Origin: a virus
Lineage: Duplodnaviria; Heunggongvirae; Uroviricota; Caudoviricetes
IMG/VR virus record: IMGVR_UViG_2740892258_000001
DNA length: 11,188 nt
Strand: one strand, 5' to 3'
Within the stretch, counting starts at the first letter, position 1. Each line of letters opens with the position of its first letter. The notes under the pieces are model-generated. The model had not been told where the DNA came from. It searched no databases and saw nothing but the letters and a program-made list of their open reading frames with translations. Made by a program: the position numbers and the translations under genes. Shown here in pieces: positions 1 to 11,188 of the stretch.

Positions 1-258
1 CCCCTGTCAGGGAGTGAAGAGACAATTTATCTTTACGCCGTCACGTCCTTGATGCTTCCAGGTAGAGAGGGGCTGGAAGCAGGAGAAAAATGAAAGAGCC
101 AGCGGTTATATTTTTGTCATGGCTGACGAGGAATGATGGAAGAAGGCGTTGTATGCCACACAACGCCTCACTGTTCATTTCTTCTTTTTCTCTAGTGGAA
201 CCCGATGAATAAGAGTTGCACTGGTTTCCGATGAGATGGCGATATACTCGGGCAAAGT

Positions 259-441
259 ATGCTGGCAGTTTTCCAACTGGTCAAAAATACCTGCTCTCGT
301 CTGTTGCAATGCCTGCAGCATGCGGCGGCAATGCGCCTTGCTTTTGCTAACCATCTTTCCTTCCTCTATCAGTCGCTGCGTGAACTCATCATGGAATACC
401 AGGTAAATGCGGATGTTATCGGTTTTGGCTACGCAGCATAG
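259..441 (+). CDS. hypothetical small protein (60 aa), uncertain
   Basis: ATG ORF in the phage right-end region. Codon choice looks enterobacterial (frequent CTG/GCG/CGT, no rare Arg/Ile codons), but there is no clear Shine-Dalgarno and no recognised homologue. A longer 117-aa ORF on the opposite strand (175..528) overlaps it and has poorer codon quality. Confidence 0.2.
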   Translation: MLAVFQLVKNTCSRLLQCLQHAAAMRLAFANHLSFLYQSLRELIMEYQVNADVIGFGYAA

Positions 442-804
442 TACAAAACGGACAGGTGCATCCCGGGACGGGGGAGGCGTCACATGTCCCTGTGATGGTT
501 GTTCCGGGTAATGCACTGTGTGGGGCATAAAAATGTCCGATAATTTTACTTTCTACCGCAGTTAGTTGATTCGTTGGTCCTGGTAGCACATTGGGCGAGG
601 ATTTAAATGCCAGGCAACTGAAGGATGATGTTGCAAGGGAGATAGCGAGAATATTTCTGATTTTCATTTGATGATGCCTCTGTGTGAAATGACGGTAAAC
701 GACGCACTTGTGCCGGCACATAATAGCAAGCACCATAATAGATCAGATTCGATTCTTGCTGTAAGTGATAATTATTCTCGTTTTTCGGGTCCTTTCCGGC
801 GATC

Positions 805-828
805 CAACAGGCTACGGGGCGGCGACCT
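805..828. other. cosN, terminase nicking site with 12-nt cohesive end
   Basis: GGGCGGCGACCT at 816..827 is the lambda left cohesive end, preceded by ...GATCCAACAGGCTACG resembling the lambda right terminus. Predicted nicks are between 815/816 on the top strand and 827/828 on the bottom strand. Right-end and left-end sequences are contiguous here. Confidence 0.8.
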
Positions 829-865
829 CGCGGGTTTTCGCTATTTATGAAAATTTTCCGGTTTA

Positions 866-986
866 AGGCGTTTCCGTTCTTCTTCGTCATAACTTAATGT
901 TTTTATTTAAAATACCCTCTGAAAAGAAAGGAAACGACAGGTGCTGAAAGCGAGCTTTTTGGCCTCTGTCGTTTCCTTTCTCTGTT
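866..986. other. cosB, terminase small-subunit binding region (R3, R2, R1 elements with AT-rich IHF-type spacer)
   Basis: Three copies of a CGTTTCC(G/T)TTCT-like element: 869..886 direct (cgtttccgttcttcttcg), 924..940 inverted (reverse complement ctgtcgtttcctttctt), 966..984 direct (ctgtcgtttcctttctctg). An AT-rich stretch at 889..916 lies between R3 and R2. The region sits between cosN and the Nu1 start, as in lambda. Confidence 0.7.
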
Positions 987-1005
987 TTTGTCCGTGGAAT
1001 GAACA

Positions 1006-1525
1006 ATGGAAGTCAACAAAAAGCAGCTGGCTGACATTTTCGGTGCGAGTATCCGTACCATTCAGAACTGGCAGGAACAGGGAATGCCCGTTCTGCGAGG
1101 CGGTGGCAAGGGTAATGAGGTGCTTTATGACTCTGCCGCCGTCATAAAATGGTATGCCGAAAGGGATGCTGAAATTGAGAACGAAAAGCTGCGCCGGGAA
1201 GTTGAAGAACTGCGGCAGGCCAGCGAGACAGATCTCCAGCCAGGGACTATTGAGTACGAACGCCACCGACTTACGCGTGCGCAGGCCGACGCACAGGAGC
1301 TGAAAAATGCCAGAGACTCCGCTGAAGTGGTGGAAACCGCATTCTGTACTTTCGTGCTGTCGCGGATCGCAGGTGAAATTGCCAGTATTCTCGACGGGAT
1401 CCCCCTGTCGGTGCAGCGGCGTTTTCCGGAACTGGAAAACCGACATGTTGATTTCCTGAAACGGGATATCATCAAAGCCATGAACAAAGCAGCCGCGCTG
1501 GATGAACTGATACCGGGGTTGCTGA

Positions 1526-1551
<26 letters not shown>
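1006..1551 (+). CDS. nu1: terminase small subunit (gpNu1-like), 181 aa
   Basis: Translation MEVNKKQLADIFGASIRTIQNWQEQGMPVLRGGGKGNEV... matches lambda gpNu1 along its whole length as I recall it (N-terminal winged-HTH region). It is the first gene downstream of cosB and is the same length as lambda Nu1. Confidence 0.95.
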
Positions 1552-5232
<3,681 letters not shown>

Positions 5233-5252
<20 letters not shown>

Positions 5253-6552
5253 TCTCCCGCATATTGCCAGCATGGCTTTTAATGAGCCGCTGATGCTTGA
5301 ACCCGCCTATGCGCGGGTTTTCTTTTGTGCGCTTGCAGGCCAGCTTGGGATCAGCCGCCTGACAGATGCGGTGTCCGGTGACAGCCTGACTGCCCCGGAG
5401 GCACCCGCGACGCTGGCGTTATCCGGTGATGATGACGGACCACGACAGGCCCGCAGTTATCAGGTCATGAACGGCATCGCCGTGCTGCCGGTGTCCGGCA
5501 CGCTGGTCAGCCGGACGCGGGCGCTGCAGCCGTATTCGGGGATGACCGGTTACAACGGCATTATCGCCCGTCTGCAACAGGCTGCCAGCGACCCGATGGT
5601 GGACGGCATTCTGCTCGATATGGATACGCCAGGCGGGATGGTGGCAGGGGCATTTGACTGCGCTGACATCATCGCCCGTGTGCGTGACATAAAGCCGGTA
5701 TGGGCGCTGGCCAATGACATGAACTGCAGTGCAGGGCAGCTGCTTGCCAGCGCCGCCTCCCGGCGTCTGGTCACGCAGACCGCCCGGACAGGCTCCATCG
5801 GCGTCATGATGGCTCACAGTAATTACGGTGCTGCGCTGGAGAAACAGGGCGTGGAAATCACGCTGATTTACAGCGGCAGCCATAAGGTGGATGGCAACCC
5901 CTACAGCCATCTTCCGGATGACGTCCGGGAGACACTGCAGTCCCGGATGGATGCAACCCGCCGGATGTTTGCGCAGAAGGTGTCGGCATATACCGGCCTG
6001 TCCGTGCAGGCTGTGCTGGATACCGAGGCTGCAGTGTACAGCGGTCAGGAGGCCATTGATGCCGGACTGGCTGATGAACTTGTCAACAGCACCGATGCGA
6101 TCACCGTTATGCGTGATGCACTGGATGCACGTAAATCCCGTCTCTCAGGAGGGCGAATGACCAAAGAGACTCAATCAACAACTGTTTCAGCCACTGCTTC
6201 GCAGGCTGACGTTACTGACGTGGTGCCAGCGACGGAGGGCGAAAACGCCAGCGCGGCGCAGCCGGACGTGAACGCGCAGATCACCGCTGCGGTTGCGGCA
6301 GAAAACAGCCGCATTATGGGGATCCTCAACTGTGAGGAGGCTCACGGACGCGAAGAACAGGCTCGCGTGCTGGCCGAAACCCCCGGTATGACCGTGGAAA
6401 CGGCCCGCCGCATTCTGGCCGCAGCACCACAGAGTGCACAGGCGCGCAGTGACACTGCGCTGGATCGTCTGATGCAGGGGGCACCGGCACCGCTGGCTGC
6501 AGGTAACCCGGCATCTGATGCCGTTAACGATTTGCTGAACACACCAGTGTAA
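5233..6552 (+). CDS. C: head maturation protease / scaffold-processing protein (gpC-like, ClpP/S49-type fold), 439 aa
   Basis: GTG start at 5233 preceded by AGGAGGAG (5221..5228), overlapping the last 20 nt of B. Translation VTAELRNLPHIASMAFNEPLMLEPAYARVFF... matches lambda gpC. The six-frame ORF extends further upstream, but the lambda-equivalent start is this GTG. Confidence 0.9.
5947..6552 (+). CDS. nu3: scaffolding protein (gpNu3-like), translated from an in-frame internal start within C, 201 aa
   Basis: ATG at 5947 is in frame with C (MDATRRMFAQKVSAYTGLSV...) and shares the C stop. Its position corresponds exactly to the lambda Nu3 start when the window is offset by the same 815 nt that maps Nu1, A, W, B and C. 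The nested arrangement is established lambda biology; weak SD. Confidence 0.75.
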   Translation: MDATRRMFAQKVSAYTGLSVQAVLDTEAAVYSGQEAIDAGLADELVNSTDAITVMRDALDARKSRLSGGRMTKETQSTTVSATASQADVTDVVPATEGENASAAQPDVNAQITAAVAAENSRIMGILNCEEAHGREEQARVLAETPGMTVETARRILAAAPQSAQARSDTALDRLMQGAPAPLAAGNPASDAVNDLLNTPV

Positions 6553-6561
6553 GGGATGTTT

Positions 6562-6894
6562 ATGACGAGCAAAGAAACCTTTACCCATTACCAGCCGCTG
6601 GGCAACAGTGACCCGGCTCATACCGCAACCGCGCCTGGCGGATTGAGTGCGAAAGCGCCTGCAATGACCCCGCTGATGCTTGACACCGCCACCCGTAAGC
6701 TGGTTGCGTGGGATGGCACCACCGACGGTGCTGCCGTTGGCATTCTTGCGGTTGCTGCTGACCAGACCAGCACCACACTGACGTTCTACAAGTCCGGCAC
6801 GTTCCGTTATGAGGATGTGCTCTGGCCGGAGGCTGCCAGCGACGAGACGAAAAAACGGACCGCGTTTGCCGGAACGGCAATCAGCATCGTTTAA
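6562..6894 (+). CDS. D: head decoration protein (gpD-like), 110 aa
   Basis: Translation [52 protein letters not shown]...AISIV matches lambda gpD. SD AAGGGA at 6551..6556 is spaced for the ATG at 6562; the upstream in-frame ATG at 6556 is probably not used. Confidence 0.9.
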
Positions 6895-6911
6895 CCTGAC
6901 CCTTCATCACT

Positions 6912-6936
6912 AAAGGCCGCATGTGCGGCTTTTTTT
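6912..6936 (+). terminator. stem-loop plus T-tract in the D-E spacer (intrinsic-terminator-like, possible attenuator)
   Basis: aaaGGCCGC-atgt-GCGGCttttttt: GC-rich 5-bp core stem (extendable through A:U pairs), 4-nt loop, then seven T at 6930..6936, about 14 nt before the E start codon. Confidence 0.4.
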
Positions 6937-6949
6937 ACGGGATTTTTTT

Positions 6950-7975
6950 ATGTCGATGTACACAACCGCCCAGCTGCTGGCGGCAAATGAGCAGAAATTT
7001 AAGTTTGATCCGCTGTTTCTGCGTCTCTTTTTCCGTGAGAGCTATCCCTTCACCACGGAGAAAGTCTATCTCTCACAAATTCCGGGACTGGTAAACATGG
7101 CGCTGTACGTTTCGCCGATTGTTTCCGGTGAGGTTATCCGTTCCCGTGGCGGCTCCACCTCTGAATTTACGCCGGGATATGTCAAGCCGAAGCATGAAGT
7201 GAATCCGCAGATGACCCTGCGTCGCCTGCCGGATGAAGATCCGCAGAATCTGGCGGACCCGGCTTACCGCCGCCGTCGCATCATCATGCAGAACATGCGT
7301 GACGAAGAGCTGGCCATTGCTCAGGTCGAAGAGATGCAGGCCGTTTCTGCCGTGCTTAAGGGCAAATACACCATGACCGGTGAAGCCTTCGATCCGGTTG
7401 AGGTGGATATGGGCCGCAGTGCGGCGAATAACATCACGCAGTCCGGCGGCACGGAGTGGAGCAAGCGTGACAAGTCCACGTATGACCCGACCGACGATAT
7501 CGAAGCCTACGCGCTGAACGCCAGCGGTGTGGTGAATATCATCGTGTTTGATCCGAAAGGCTGGGCGCTGTTCCGTTCCTTCAAAGCCGTCAGGGAGAAG
7601 CTGGATACCCGTCGCGGCTCTCATTCCGAACTGGAGACAGCGGTAAAAGACCTGGGTAAAGCGGTGTCCTATAAGGGGATGTATGGCGATGTGGCCATCG
7701 TCGTGTATTCCGGACAGTACGTGGAAAACGGCGTCAAAAAGAACTTCCTGCCGGACAACACGATGGTGCTGGGTAACACTCATGCACGCGGTCTGCGCAC
7801 CTATGGCTGCATTCAGGATGCGGACGCACAGCGCGAAGGCATTAACGCCTCTGCCCGCTACCCGAAAAACTGGGTGACCACCGGCGATCCGGCGCGTGAG
7901 TTCACCATGATTCAGTCAGCACCGCTGATGCTGCTGGCTGACCCTGATGAGTTCGTGTCCGTACAACTGGCGTAA
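6950..7975 (+). CDS. E: major capsid protein (gpE-like, HK97 fold), 341 aa
   Basis: Translation MSMYTTAQLLAANEQKFKFDPLFLRLFFRESYPFTTEKVYLSQIPGLVNMALYVSPIVSGEV... through ...DPDEFVSVQLA matches lambda gpE over its full length. Same length as lambda E. Confidence 0.95.
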   Translation: MSMYTTAQLLAANEQKFKFDPLFLRLFFRESYPFTTEKVYLSQIPGLVNMALYVSPIVSGEVIRSRGGSTSEFTPGYVKPKHEVNPQMTLRRLPDEDPQNLADPAYRRRRIIMQNMRDEELAIAQVEEMQAVSAVLKGKYTMTGEAFDPVEVDMGRSAANNITQSGGTEWSKRDKSTYDPTDDIEAYALNASGVVNIIVFDPKGWALFRSFKAVREKLDTRRGSHSELETAVKDLGKAVSYKGMYGDVAIVVYSGQYVENGVKKNFLPDNTMVLGNTHARGLRTYGCIQDADAQREGINASARYPKNWVTTGDPAREFTMIQSAPLMLLADPDEFVSVQLA

Positions 7976-7977
7976 TC

Positions 7978-7995
7978 ATGGCCCTTCGGGGCCAT
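7978..7995 (+). other. perfect hairpin with UUCG-type tetraloop in the E-FI spacer
   Basis: ATGGCCC-ttcg-GGGCCAT: 7-bp perfect inverted repeat with a 4-nt ttcg loop, beginning 3 nt after the E stop, followed by a T-rich stretch and the FI SD GGAGGAG (8007..8013). Confidence 0.4.
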
Positions 7996-8016
7996 TGTTT
8001 CTCTGTGGAGGAGTCC

Positions 8017-8412
8017 ATGACGAAAGATGAGCTGATTGCCCGTCTCCGCTCGCTGGGTGAGCAACTGAACCGTGATGTCAGCCTGACGGGGACGAAAGAA
8101 GAACTGGCACTCCGTGTGGCAGAGCTGGAAGAGGAGCTTGATGACACGGATGACGCTGCCGGTCAGGACACATCTGTCAACCCGGAAAATGCGCTGACCG
8201 GGTATGAAAATAACGTGGTATCAGCGCAGCCGGATACCGTGACTGATACGGCTGCTCTGGTCACGGTCGTGGCACTGGTGACGCTGCATACTGATGCACT
8301 TCACGCCACGCGGGATGAACCTGTGGCATTTGTGCTGCCGGGAACGGCGTTTCGTGTCTCTGCCGGTGTGGCAGCCGAAATGACAGAGCGCGGCCTGGCC
8401 AGAATGCAATAA
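8017..8412 (+). CDS. FI: DNA packaging / head-assembly accessory protein (gpFI-like), 131 aa
   Basis: ATG at 8017 with strong SD GGAGGAG. Translation MTKDELIARLRSLGEQLNRDVSLTGTKEELALRVAELEEELDD...AAEMTERGLARMQ matches lambda gpFI at the N and C termini, with a diverged acidic/linker middle. The six-frame ORF starts earlier (7978), inside the hairpin. Confidence 0.9.
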   Translation: MTKDELIARLRSLGEQLNRDVSLTGTKEELALRVAELEEELDDTDDAAGQDTSVNPENALTGYENNVVSAQPDTVTDTAALVTVVALVTLHTDALHATRDEPVAFVLPGTAFRVSAGVAAEMTERGLARMQ

Positions 8413-8423
8413 CGGGAGGCGCT

Positions 8424-8777
8424 GTGGCTGATTTCGATAACCTGTTCGATGCTGCCATTGCCCGCGCCGATGAAACGATACGCGGGTACATGGGAACGTC
8501 AGCCACCATGACATCCGGTGAGCAGTCCGGTGCTGTGATACGTGGTGTTTTTGATGACCCTGAAAATATCAGCTATGCCGGACAGGGCGTGCGCGTTGAA
8601 GGCTCCAGCCCGTCCCTGTTTGTCCGGACTGATGAGGTGCGGCAGCTGCGGCGTGGAGACACGCTGACCATCGGTGAGGAAAATTTCTGGGTAGACCGGG
8701 TTTCGCCGGATGATGGCGGAAGCTGTCATCTCTGGCTTGGGCGTGGCGTGCCGCCTGCCGTTAACCGTCGCCGCTGA
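8424..8777 (+). CDS. FII: head-tail connector protein (gpFII-like), 117 aa
   Basis: GTG start at 8424 with SD GGGAGG (8414..8419). Translation (M)ADFDNLFDAAIARADETIRGYMGTSATMTSGEQSGAVIRGVFDDPENISYAGQGVRVEG... matches lambda gpFII. Confidence 0.9.
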   Translation: MADFDNLFDAAIARADETIRGYMGTSATMTSGEQSGAVIRGVFDDPENISYAGQGVRVEGSSPSLFVRTDEVRQLRRGDTLTIGEENFWVDRVSPDDGGSCHLWLGRGVPPAVNRRR

Positions 8778-8788
8778 AAGGGGGATGT

Positions 8789-9367
8789 ATGGCCATAAAA
8801 GGTCTTGAGCAGGCCGTTGAAAACCTCAGCCGTATCAGCAAAACGGCGGTGCCCGGTGCCGCCGCAATGGCCATTAACCGCGTTGCTTCATCCGCGATAT
8901 CGCAGTCTGCGTCACAGGTTGCTCGTGAGACAAAGGTACGCCGGAAACTGGTAAAGGAAAGGGCCAGGCTGAAAAGGGCCACGGTCAAAAATCCGCAGGC
9001 CAGAATCAAAGTTAACCGGGGGGATTTGCCCGTAATCAAGCTGGGTAATGCGCGGGTTGTCCTGTCCCGCCGCAGGCGTCGTAAAAAGGGGCAGCGTTCA
9101 TCCCTGAAAGGTGGCGGCAGCGTGCTTGTGGTGGGTAACCGTCGTATTCCCGGCGCGTTTATTCAGCAACTGAAAAACGGCCGGTGGCATGTTATGCAGC
9201 GTGTGGCCGGGAAAAACCGTTACCCCATTGATGTGGTGAAAATCCCGATGGCGGTGCCGCTGACCACGGCGTTTAAACAGAATATTGAACGGATACGGCG
9301 TGAACGTCTTCCGAAAGAGCTGGGCTATGCGCTGCAGCATCAACTGAGAATGGTAATAAAGCGATGA
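8789..9367 (+). CDS. Z: tail completion protein (gpZ-like), 192 aa
   Basis: ATG at 8789 with SD AAAGGGGGA upstream. Translation MAIKGLEQAVENLSRISKTAVPGAAAMAINRVASSAISQSASQVARETKVRRKL... matches lambda gpZ. Same length as lambda Z. Confidence 0.9.
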   Translation: MAIKGLEQAVENLSRISKTAVPGAAAMAINRVASSAISQSASQVARETKVRRKLVKERARLKRATVKNPQARIKVNRGDLPVIKLGNARVVLSRRRRRKKGQRSSLKGGGSVLVVGNRRIPGAFIQQLKNGRWHVMQRVAGKNRYPIDVVKIPMAVPLTTAFKQNIERIRRERLPKELGYALQHQLRMVIKR

Positions 9368-9759
9368 AACATACTGAACTCCGTGCAGCCGTACTGGATG
9401 CACTGGAGAAGCATGACACCGGGGCGACGCTTTTTGATGGTCGCCCCGCTGTTTTTGATGAGGAAGATTTTCCGGCAATTGCCGTTTATCTCACCGGCGC
9501 TGAATACACGGGCGAAGAGCTGGACAGCGATACCTGGCAGGCGGAGCTGCATATTGAAGTTTTCCTGCCTGCTCAGGTGCCGGATTCAGAGCTGGATTCG
9601 TGGATGGAGTCCCGGATTTATCCGGTGATGAGCGATATCCCGGCACTGTCAGATTTGATCACCAGTATGGTGGCCAGCGGCTATGACTACCGGCGCGACG
9701 ATGATGCGGGCCTGTGGAGTTCAGCCGATCTGACTTATGTCATTACCTATGAAATGTGA
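9364..9759 (+). CDS. U: tail tube terminator protein (gpU-like), 131 aa
   Basis: ATGA overlap with the Z stop. Translation MKHTELRAAVLDALEKHDTGATLFDGRPAVFDEEDFPAIAVYLTGAEYTGEELD...LTYVITYEM matches lambda gpU. Confidence 0.9.
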   Translation: MKHTELRAAVLDALEKHDTGATLFDGRPAVFDEEDFPAIAVYLTGAEYTGEELDSDTWQAELHIEVFLPAQVPDSELDSWMESRIYPVMSDIPALSDLITSMVASGYDYRRDDDAGLWSSADLTYVITYEM

Positions 9760-9782
9760 GGACGAGAGAGGTATACCGACAA

Positions 9783-10486
9783 ATGGCAGCGACGCACACA
9801 CTCCCTCTGGCGTCACCGGGAATGGCACGCATCTGCCTTTACGGGGATTTGCAACGATTTGGCCGCCGCATCGACCTTCGTGTGAAAACGGGGGCTGAAG
9901 CCATCCGGGCACTGGCCACACAGCTCCCGGCGTTTCGGTGAAAACGGGGGCTGAAGCCATCCGGGCACTGGCCACACAGCTCCCGGCGTTTCGCCAGAAA
10001 CTGAATGAGGGCTGGTATCAGGTGCGCATTTCCGGGCGTGATGCAGGCGAAAATGAATTATCTGCCCGTCTTAATGAACCGCTGGCAAATGGTGCCGTGA
10101 TCCACGTCGTTCCGCGTCTGGCGGGTGCCAAAAGTGGCGGTGTGTTTCAGGCGGTGCTGGGTGCGGCGCTGATTGCGGTGGCATGGTGGAACCCTGTTGG
10201 CTGGCTGGGGGCCGCGGCTGTATCGGGTCTGTATGCAGCAGGGGCCAGTATGATCCTGGGTGGTGTGGCGCAGATGCTGGCACCGAAAGCCAGGACGCCC
10301 ACGGCAGCCAGTACAGATAACGGCAAACAGAACACCTATTTTTCTTCACTGGATAATATGGTTGCCCAGGGCAATGTTCTGCCCGTTCTGTACGGTGAAA
10401 TGCGCGTGGGATCACGTGTGGTATCTCAGGAGATCAGCACAGCAGATGAAGGTGATGGTGGTCAGGTTGTGGTGATTGGTCGCTGA
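9783..10486 (+). pseudogene. I: tail assembly protein I homologue, split by a frameshifting 56-bp tandem duplication
   Basis: ATG at 9783 gives MAATHTLPLASPGMARICLYGDLQRFGRRIDLRVKTGAEAIRALATQLPAFR, then TGA at 9939..9941. The remaining ...QKLNEGWYQVRISGRD...GGQVVVIGR is in another frame (9938..10486). Both termini match lambda gpI as I recall it. Removing one 56-bp repeat copy restores a single ORF of about 215 aa. Confidence 0.8.
9882..9993. repeat. perfect tandem duplication, 2 x 56 bp
   Basis: gtgaaaacgggggctgaagccatccgggcactggccacacagctcccggcgtttcg occurs at 9882..9937 and again, identical, at 9938..9993. Flanking bases differ on both sides, so there are exactly two copies. 56 is not a multiple of 3. 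Confidence 0.95.
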
Positions 10487-10504
10487 TGAAAAACGTTTTA
10501 TGTG

Positions 10505-10530
10505 AAACCGCCTCCGGGCGGTTTTATCGT
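10505..10530 (+). terminator. stem-loop plus T-rich tail in the I-J spacer (intrinsic-terminator-like)
   Basis: AAACCGCC-tccg-GGCGGTTT: perfect 8-bp stem with 4-nt loop, followed by tatcgttt. It lies in the 60-nt spacer between the I stop (10486) and the canonical J start (10547). Confidence 0.3.
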
Positions 10531-10546
10531 TTATGGAGCATGACGA

Positions 10547-11188
10547 ATGGGGATTAAAAAGCGTGCTGCTGAACAGTACGCCGGTGCTGGACAGTGAGGG
10601 GAATACCAATATATCCGGCGTCACGGTGGTGTTCCGGGCAGGTGAGCAGGAGCAGTCACCGCCGGAGGGATTTGAATCCTCCGGCTCCGAGACGGTGCTG
10701 GGTACGGAAGTGAAATATGACACGCCGATCACCCGCACCATTACGTCGGCAAACATCGACCGTCTGCGCTTTACCTTCGGTGTACAGGCACTGGTGGAAA
10801 CCACCTCAAAGGGTGACAGGAATCCGTCGGAAGTCCGTCTGCTGGTTCAGATACAGCGTAATGGTGGCTGGGTGACGGAAAAAGACATCACCATTAAGGG
10901 CAAAACCACCTCGCAGTATCTGGCCTCGGTGGTGGTGGGTAACCTGCCGCCGCGCCCGTTCAATATACGGATGCGCAGGATGACGCCGGACAGCACCACA
11001 GACCAGCTGCAGAACAAAACGCTCTGGTCGTCATAACGCTGACGCTCGACCGTGAAATCACGCTGCCATCCTCCGGTACCACGCTGATAAGTCTGGTTGA
11101 CGGAAGTGGCAATCCGGTCAGCGTGGAGGTTCAGTCCGTCACCGACGGCGTGAAGGTGAAAGTGAGCCGTGTTCCTGACGGCGTTGCC
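10547..11188 (+). pseudogene. J: tail tip / host-specificity protein J homologue, fragmented by a 5' frameshifting lesion and an internal deletion; continues past the window end
   Basis: Canonical start ATG at 10547 with SD GGAG (10535..10538) reads MGIKKRAAEQYAGAGQ then stops at 10595..10597. The J body GLKSVLLNSTPVLDSEGNTNISGVTVVFRAGEQEQ...QLQNKTLWSS is in a different frame (10551..11033) and ends at TAA 11034..11036. From 11039 a third frame encodes LTLDREITLPSSGTTLISLVDGSGNPVSVEVQSVTDGVKVKVSRVPDGVA, which in lambda J lies about 300 residues further on. Confidence 0.8.

Follow-up and report, generated by a model that had tools for sequence, protein, structure and literature searches.

A perfect 56-bp tandem duplication interrupts gene I in a contig that carries part of a lambda-like prophage. 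From sequence comparisons we conclude that this duplication is very probably an artefact of assembly or scaffolding and is not present in the DNA of the bacterium. It is almost certainly not a real feature and says nothing on the biology of the prophage. The true gene I is most likely intact, encodes 215 aa and is preceded by the genes V through K.

The window analyzed here is the entire contig CVOH01000018.1 (11,188 bp) of the draft assembly GCA_001245225.1. Its genes follow a lambda-type order, with Nu1, A, W, B, C, D, E, FI, FII, Z and U leading to the end of K, then to I and to fragments of J. Among complete E. coli genomes, the window was closest to a lambda-like prophage in N54, an isolate from CSF (100.0% after rounding by the tool), while IHE3034 and other ST95-type strains matched the window at 99.7–99.9%. 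We refer to the N54 prophage (L085 reverse-complemented) as P1, and the positions of the contig pieces described below were obtained by alignment to P1.

The duplication and the reading frames of gene I

The preliminary description of this DNA had reported two identical, adjacent 56-bp copies inside I, a frameshift that leads into a TGA at 9939–9941 and a peptide that is encoded twice as a result. All of this was confirmed from the sequence. The features concerned are the following:

9882..9937, + strand: copy 1 of the 56-bp unit, equal to P1 7389–7444
9938..9993, + strand: copy 2 of the 56-bp unit, identical to copy 1 and directly adjacent to it
9783..9941, + strand: apparent N-terminal gpI fragment of 52 aa (MAAT...PAFR), with its ATG at 9783 and its TGA at 9939–9941 in copy 2
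9938..10486, + strand: apparent C-terminal gpI open reading frame of 182 aa with a GTG start, beginning VKTGAEAIRALATQLPAFR and matching PF06805

The junction between the copies (9937/9938) reads ...GCGTTTCG on its left side and GTGAAAAC... on its right side. Tandem Repeats Finder (TRF), run on the window, placed an array with a period of 56 at the same site. As the 56-bp pair is the only exact repeat of at least 16 bases in the window, chance is excluded as its origin. The bases flanking the two copies differ, T vs. G on the left and C vs. G on the right, and the repeat does not extend any further.

Deletion of one copy in silico restored a protein of 215 aa, as the preliminary description had predicted. 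This is the length of the annotated I of E. coli N54 (21602–22249), and three relatives in IMG/VR have a protein that is 100% identical to the restored gpI. With one copy removed, the open reading frame is thus a full-length homolog within the lambda gpI family (PF06805). Residues 1–215 of the restored protein were matched by all 80 of the 80 best IMG/VR homologs, each with a locus span of 645 nt, which leaves no room for an insertion of 56 nt. Matches in phages and in E. coli likewise came as two aligned pieces whose span fell 56 bp short of that of the query, that is, with one copy.

In IHE3034, two substitutions relative to N54 and the window fall inside the 56-bp unit, a C>T and a G>T at P1 7433 and 7437. 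These positions correspond to window 9926 and 9930 and again to 9982 and 9986, and apart from them the two strains show 99.9% identity across the window.

The K/I overlap and the GTGA motif

The tail-tip genes K and I of lambda have overlapping frames. The same arrangement is seen here, with the stop codon of K and codon 34 of I overlapping as GTGA and with a restored I of 215 aa that matches PF06805. The contig differs from lambda in that it lacks most of K and has the GTGA twice, both of which we judge to be artefactual. In N54, K is annotated at 20961–21704 and I at 21602–22249, an overlap of 103 nt, with I started by PGAP at the upstream ATG.

The preliminary description had taken the GTGA to be formed by the break in I. 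Instead, it is the native TGA stop of K overlapping the GTG of I codon 34. It occurs once in every intact relative and was duplicated along with the 56-bp unit. Because the unit begins with GTGA and its length has the form 3n+2, the shifted I frame meets the K-frame TGA of copy 2.

We also considered whether the GTGA could serve for termination-reinitiation, as had been proposed. The motif was found in 70 of 80 I alleles, and the remaining 10 have GTAA. The GTAA alleles keep the K stop and a Val codon while losing the start codon, so that a start at the GTG lacks conservation. We therefore rejected reinitiation at this GTG as a conserved mechanism, and the locus does not show the conserved start overlapping a stop that marks programmed termination-reinitiation. 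By eye, no purine-rich stretch resembling a Shine-Dalgarno sequence was seen in the 20 nt upstream of either GTG.

A related explanation is that the repeat belongs naturally to the gpI lineage and that the GTGA acts as a programmed stop/restart signal. The prevalence of GTGA among the alleles speaks for it, as do those annotations that start I at the GTG. Against this, every homolog examined has a single copy, which also disposes of the idea that related genes hold the repeat in frame; the GTAA alleles have given up the start codon but kept the K stop; and PGAP places the start of I at the ATG inside K, 103 nt before the end of that gene. We regard this explanation as hardly credible.

Public records disagree on where I starts. 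N54 and IHE3034 have the start at the ATG (215 aa), phage Ayreon and many drafts at the GTG of codon 34 (182 aa). In Ayreon and other assemblies the gene callers end K at the TGA of the GTGA and start I at its GTG, and in these other assemblies the 182-aa product adjoins an intact K. The I of a second lambda-like prophage of N54 is annotated as 190 aa. Coordinates of such I annotations are 3121–3669 in L001 and 8421–8993 in L084.

Contig structure relative to the N54 prophage

The match to the N54 prophage consists of five collinear pieces distributed over 17,971 bp of the reference:

1..9764, + strand: piece 1, ending at P1 1451 and collinear with the N54 prophage at 100%
9765..9937, + strand: piece B, P1 7272–7444, with the last 40 codons of K (stop TGA at 9883–9885) and the first 155 nt of I
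9938..10550, + strand: piece C, P1 7389–8001, with I from codon 34 to its stop at 10486, the I–J spacer and the first 4 nt of J
10551..11035, + strand: piece D, P1 8118–8602, an internal J fragment that follows a loss of 116 bp
11036..11188, + strand: piece E, P1 9507–9659, an internal J fragment that follows a loss of 904 bp and runs to the contig end

Piece 1 holds the head and packaging genes Nu1, A, W, B, C/Nu3, D, E, FI, FII, Z and U. It is correctly assembled and ends at a graph fork just past the stop codon of U. The I–J spacer in piece C contains a terminator-like hairpin at 10505–10525, which is GC-rich and followed by a run of T (aaaccgcc-tccg-ggcggtttt). In the record of phage Ayreon a terminator is annotated at the equivalent site.

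There are four junctions in all, located between 9764 and 11036, so that three gaps and the 56-bp duplication are found in the last 1.4 kb of the contig. At 9764/9765, 5,820 bp are missing relative to N54 (V, G, T, H, M, L and most of K), and the stop codon of U directly adjoins the last 121 nt of K. At 10550/10551 the contig lacks 116 bp of the start of J, and at 11035/11036 it lacks 904 bp inside J. These two losses together create a chimeric open reading frame of 167 aa (10533–11036) that was called as a J fragment; within the indexed collection its product is found in this contig only. Microhomology at the four junctions amounts to 3, 0, 1, and 0 bp, and the contig contains 0 N characters.

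We searched for the junctions elsewhere using 44-nt probes centered on each of them, a design in which no match seed is possible unless the junction is present. None of the four junctions was detected in 5,426 complete E. coli genomes or in 50,697 phage records. Searches for the duplication junction in IMG/VR, in 185,579 GTDB species representatives and in JGI metagenomes likewise gave no match.

One way to account for this structure is that the prophage is decaying, has truly lost V–K and parts of J and has also undergone a real, recent 56-bp tandem duplication, for instance through slippage or template switching. Prophage decay by deletion is common, the two copies are perfect, the rest of the contig is clean and there is no N in it. 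It also counts against an artefact that 5.8 kb, much of which N54 has only in P1, would have been skipped without Ns being inserted. On the other hand, four junctions with 0–3 bp of microhomology within 1.3 kb are unusual for E. coli, and none of the four was seen in any other genome searched. A genuine duplication would further give no reason why five breakpoints should depend on k and lie 56 nt from sites where paralogs diverge, or why the duplicated unit should be a branching 56-mer, as described in the next section. We therefore consider a real duplication very unlikely. The same low probability applies to the scenario in which the duplication and all three deletions are physically present, I is split in a tail-less remnant and the GTGA could restart a 182-aa gpI fragment.

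Piece boundaries and branching 56-mers

Both flanking bases of the 56-bp unit sit at wobble positions that are polymorphic in the set of I alleles, suggesting that the unit is a stretch of exact identity delimited by sites where paralogous prophages differ. For example, base 9994 (I position 156), the next one after copy 2, differs in 65 of 76 other I alleles. We thus tested the idea that the unit represents the k-1 overlap of de Bruijn unitigs at k=57 (56 = 57-1).

When an offset of 56 was applied, all six testable boundaries inside I and J fell on polymorphic sites, namely P1 7328 (79 differing alleles), 7388 (8), 7445 (68), 7945 (61), 8174 (3), and 8546 (7). In a scan of offsets from 1 to 130, only 56 gave six of six. 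The start of piece B, for instance, lies 56 nt upstream of I position 39, a site at which 74 of 76 alleles differ. For the start of piece E we set down a prediction beforehand, that 11092 is a distinguishing base following a shared 56-mer. This was confirmed: 59 of 80 J alleles have the first 56-mer of piece E followed by a base other than T, and a T at 11092 is restricted to P1-type loci plus one other.

Two other prophages account for the individual boundaries. A second lambda-like prophage in N54, P2, lies next to sitABCD and shares with P1 exact matches of at least 56 nt. One of these terminates at 1451, together with piece 1, and one at 7327, from which the start of piece B follows (7327-55 = 7272); a further match starts at 7946 and gives the end of piece C (7946+55 = 8001). 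At P1 1451 the exact match stops not only for P2 but also for 41 of 80 U alleles, and the site is a branching vertex. P2 alone was rejected as the cause of the unit boundary, as SNPs distinguish it from P1 within the unit. In IMG/VR, eight contigs have I alleles that match the present allele exactly over precisely the 56-bp unit. The family of I alleles bounded at the unit, Q, is found at 99.8% identity in ST95 genomes including PMV-1, and the ST95 strain PMV-1 carries both P1 and Q. The exact match between the PMV-1 copy of Q (PMV-1-Q) and P1 over 5597–7444 ends on the last base of copy 1. Others start at 8118, the start of piece D, and at 8547, which yields the end of piece D (8547+55 = 8602), and another ends at 9562, which yields the start of piece E (9562-55 = 9507). 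A single mosaic paralog identical to P1 over a 1,016-bp segment around the 904-bp gap was sought as well and is present in no complete genome. Boundaries contributed by two different paralog types explain the data instead.

Long identical stretches are shared by the resident lambda-like prophages of ST95 strains. PMV-1-Q (L261, 1.426–1.445 Mb) equals P1 (L085) over 1,848 bp. This stretch runs from the last part of the tape-measure gene H through M, L, and K into the beginning of I, and the M, L, and K proteins of the two prophages are identical. In strain N1 (L087), the H, M, L, and K proteins are identical to those of P1 and are encoded at 2.95 Mb of the chromosome. The PMV-1 case suggests an exchange of modules between prophages in one genome.

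A rule by which only P1-specific unitigs are kept, each ending 56 nt after a SNP, fails at the end of piece 1, where P1 1395 is not polymorphic. We replaced this SNP-offset rule with a broader rule based on branching vertices, which fits. For this purpose a de Bruijn graph was built from N54-P1, N54-P2, and PMV-1-Q, which are proxy prophages of two related genomes and not the paralogs of the isolate itself. Among complete genomes, N54 supplied the pair P1 and P2, and PMV-1 the pair P1 and Q.

At k=57, all eight internal piece boundaries coincide with edges of branching 56-mers. Both ends of piece B are such vertices, and the duplicated unit is itself a branching 56-mer vertex: copy 1 forms the last 56 bases of piece B (its terminal k-1 vertex) and copy 2 the first 56 bases of piece C (its leading k-1 vertex). 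We scanned the odd values of k between 21 and 127 and, in addition, all k in the range 54–60. Eight of eight boundaries were explained at k=57 only, while every other k explained at most four. The k=57 graph has 120 branching 56-mer vertices on 11,801 nt, or ∼1% per position. From this vertex count we infer that the probability of a chance coincidence of the boundaries is below 1e-12, taking ∼1% per boundary, seven independent boundaries and a small factor for the ambiguity caused by microhomology. The contig end is an exception. At 11188 it lies 1 nt past the nearest branching 56-mer (P1 9603–9658), so that the k=57 rule misses it by one base.

The junctions could also stem from the library or the reads, if chimeric or PCR-recombinant molecules had been assembled faithfully. 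Such molecules would likewise produce junctions private to one data set, but they would not be expected to break at k-1 offsets from graph forks, and four separate chimeras would be needed, each of which would have to dominate the coverage. This origin appears exceedingly unlikely.

We favor the explanation that the overlap between unitigs was not trimmed. The isolate would carry several related lambda-like prophages, and in a k=57 de Bruijn graph each point where identity between them starts or stops would produce a branching 56-mer at which unitigs end and begin, with adjacent unitigs sharing that 56-mer. The last 1.4 kb of the contig would then be a chain of k=57 unitigs abutted without trimming of the overlap. 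As B and C are true neighbors, abutting them would write their common 56-mer twice and produce an apparent tandem duplication. Where intervening unitigs were omitted (between piece 1 and B, C and D, and D and E), 5,820, 116, and 904 bp would be missing. The geometry of the junctions fits k=57 alone; the program responsible and the reason for the dropped unitigs are our interpretation. The join at 9764/9765 is a k=57 join artefact of the same kind, and because of it the prophage looks tail-less.

Draft genomes are known to contain false duplications and deletions where scaffolds were joined or gaps closed. The present case resembles them in that the anomalies are small, perfect, confined to one assembly, near a contig end and in a prophage region of multiple copies. 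Unlike at draft-genome scaffold joins, the contig retains no gap marker (0 N). De Bruijn assemblers yield overlapping contig ends, which have to be removed before joining (PMC5481147). Such end overlaps of k or k-1 share with our case the k-1 length, the branching unit and a single k for all joins. They differ from it in that the overlap was here left inside a submitted contig and neighboring unitigs were skipped without Ns.

Taken together, the duplication has a length of k-1 for an odd k, its unit is branching, the other joins follow the same k and its junction is private to this contig. The preliminary description had named an assembly artefact as one option, and the k=57 geometry together with the private junctions strongly supports it. 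The accompanying view of a biologically split gene I was not supported, as the breakpoints follow k=57 and the junctions are absent elsewhere. For the same reasons, namely breakpoints tied to k=57 and no related genome with the junction, the locus does not qualify as a genuine tandem-duplication pseudogene.

The duplication has no biological significance, and its practical value is that of a warning. Draft assemblies of strains with several related prophages can hold perfect k-1 tandem duplications and silent, gapless deletions, and such join errors mimic frameshifts, pseudogenes and defective prophages. Building a graph from the paralogs and checking whether breakpoints coincide with edges of its branching (k-1)-mers is a diagnostic that can be reused in other cases. 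Surveys that use GCA_001245225.1 would wrongly score V–K as absent and I and J as disrupted in this prophage.
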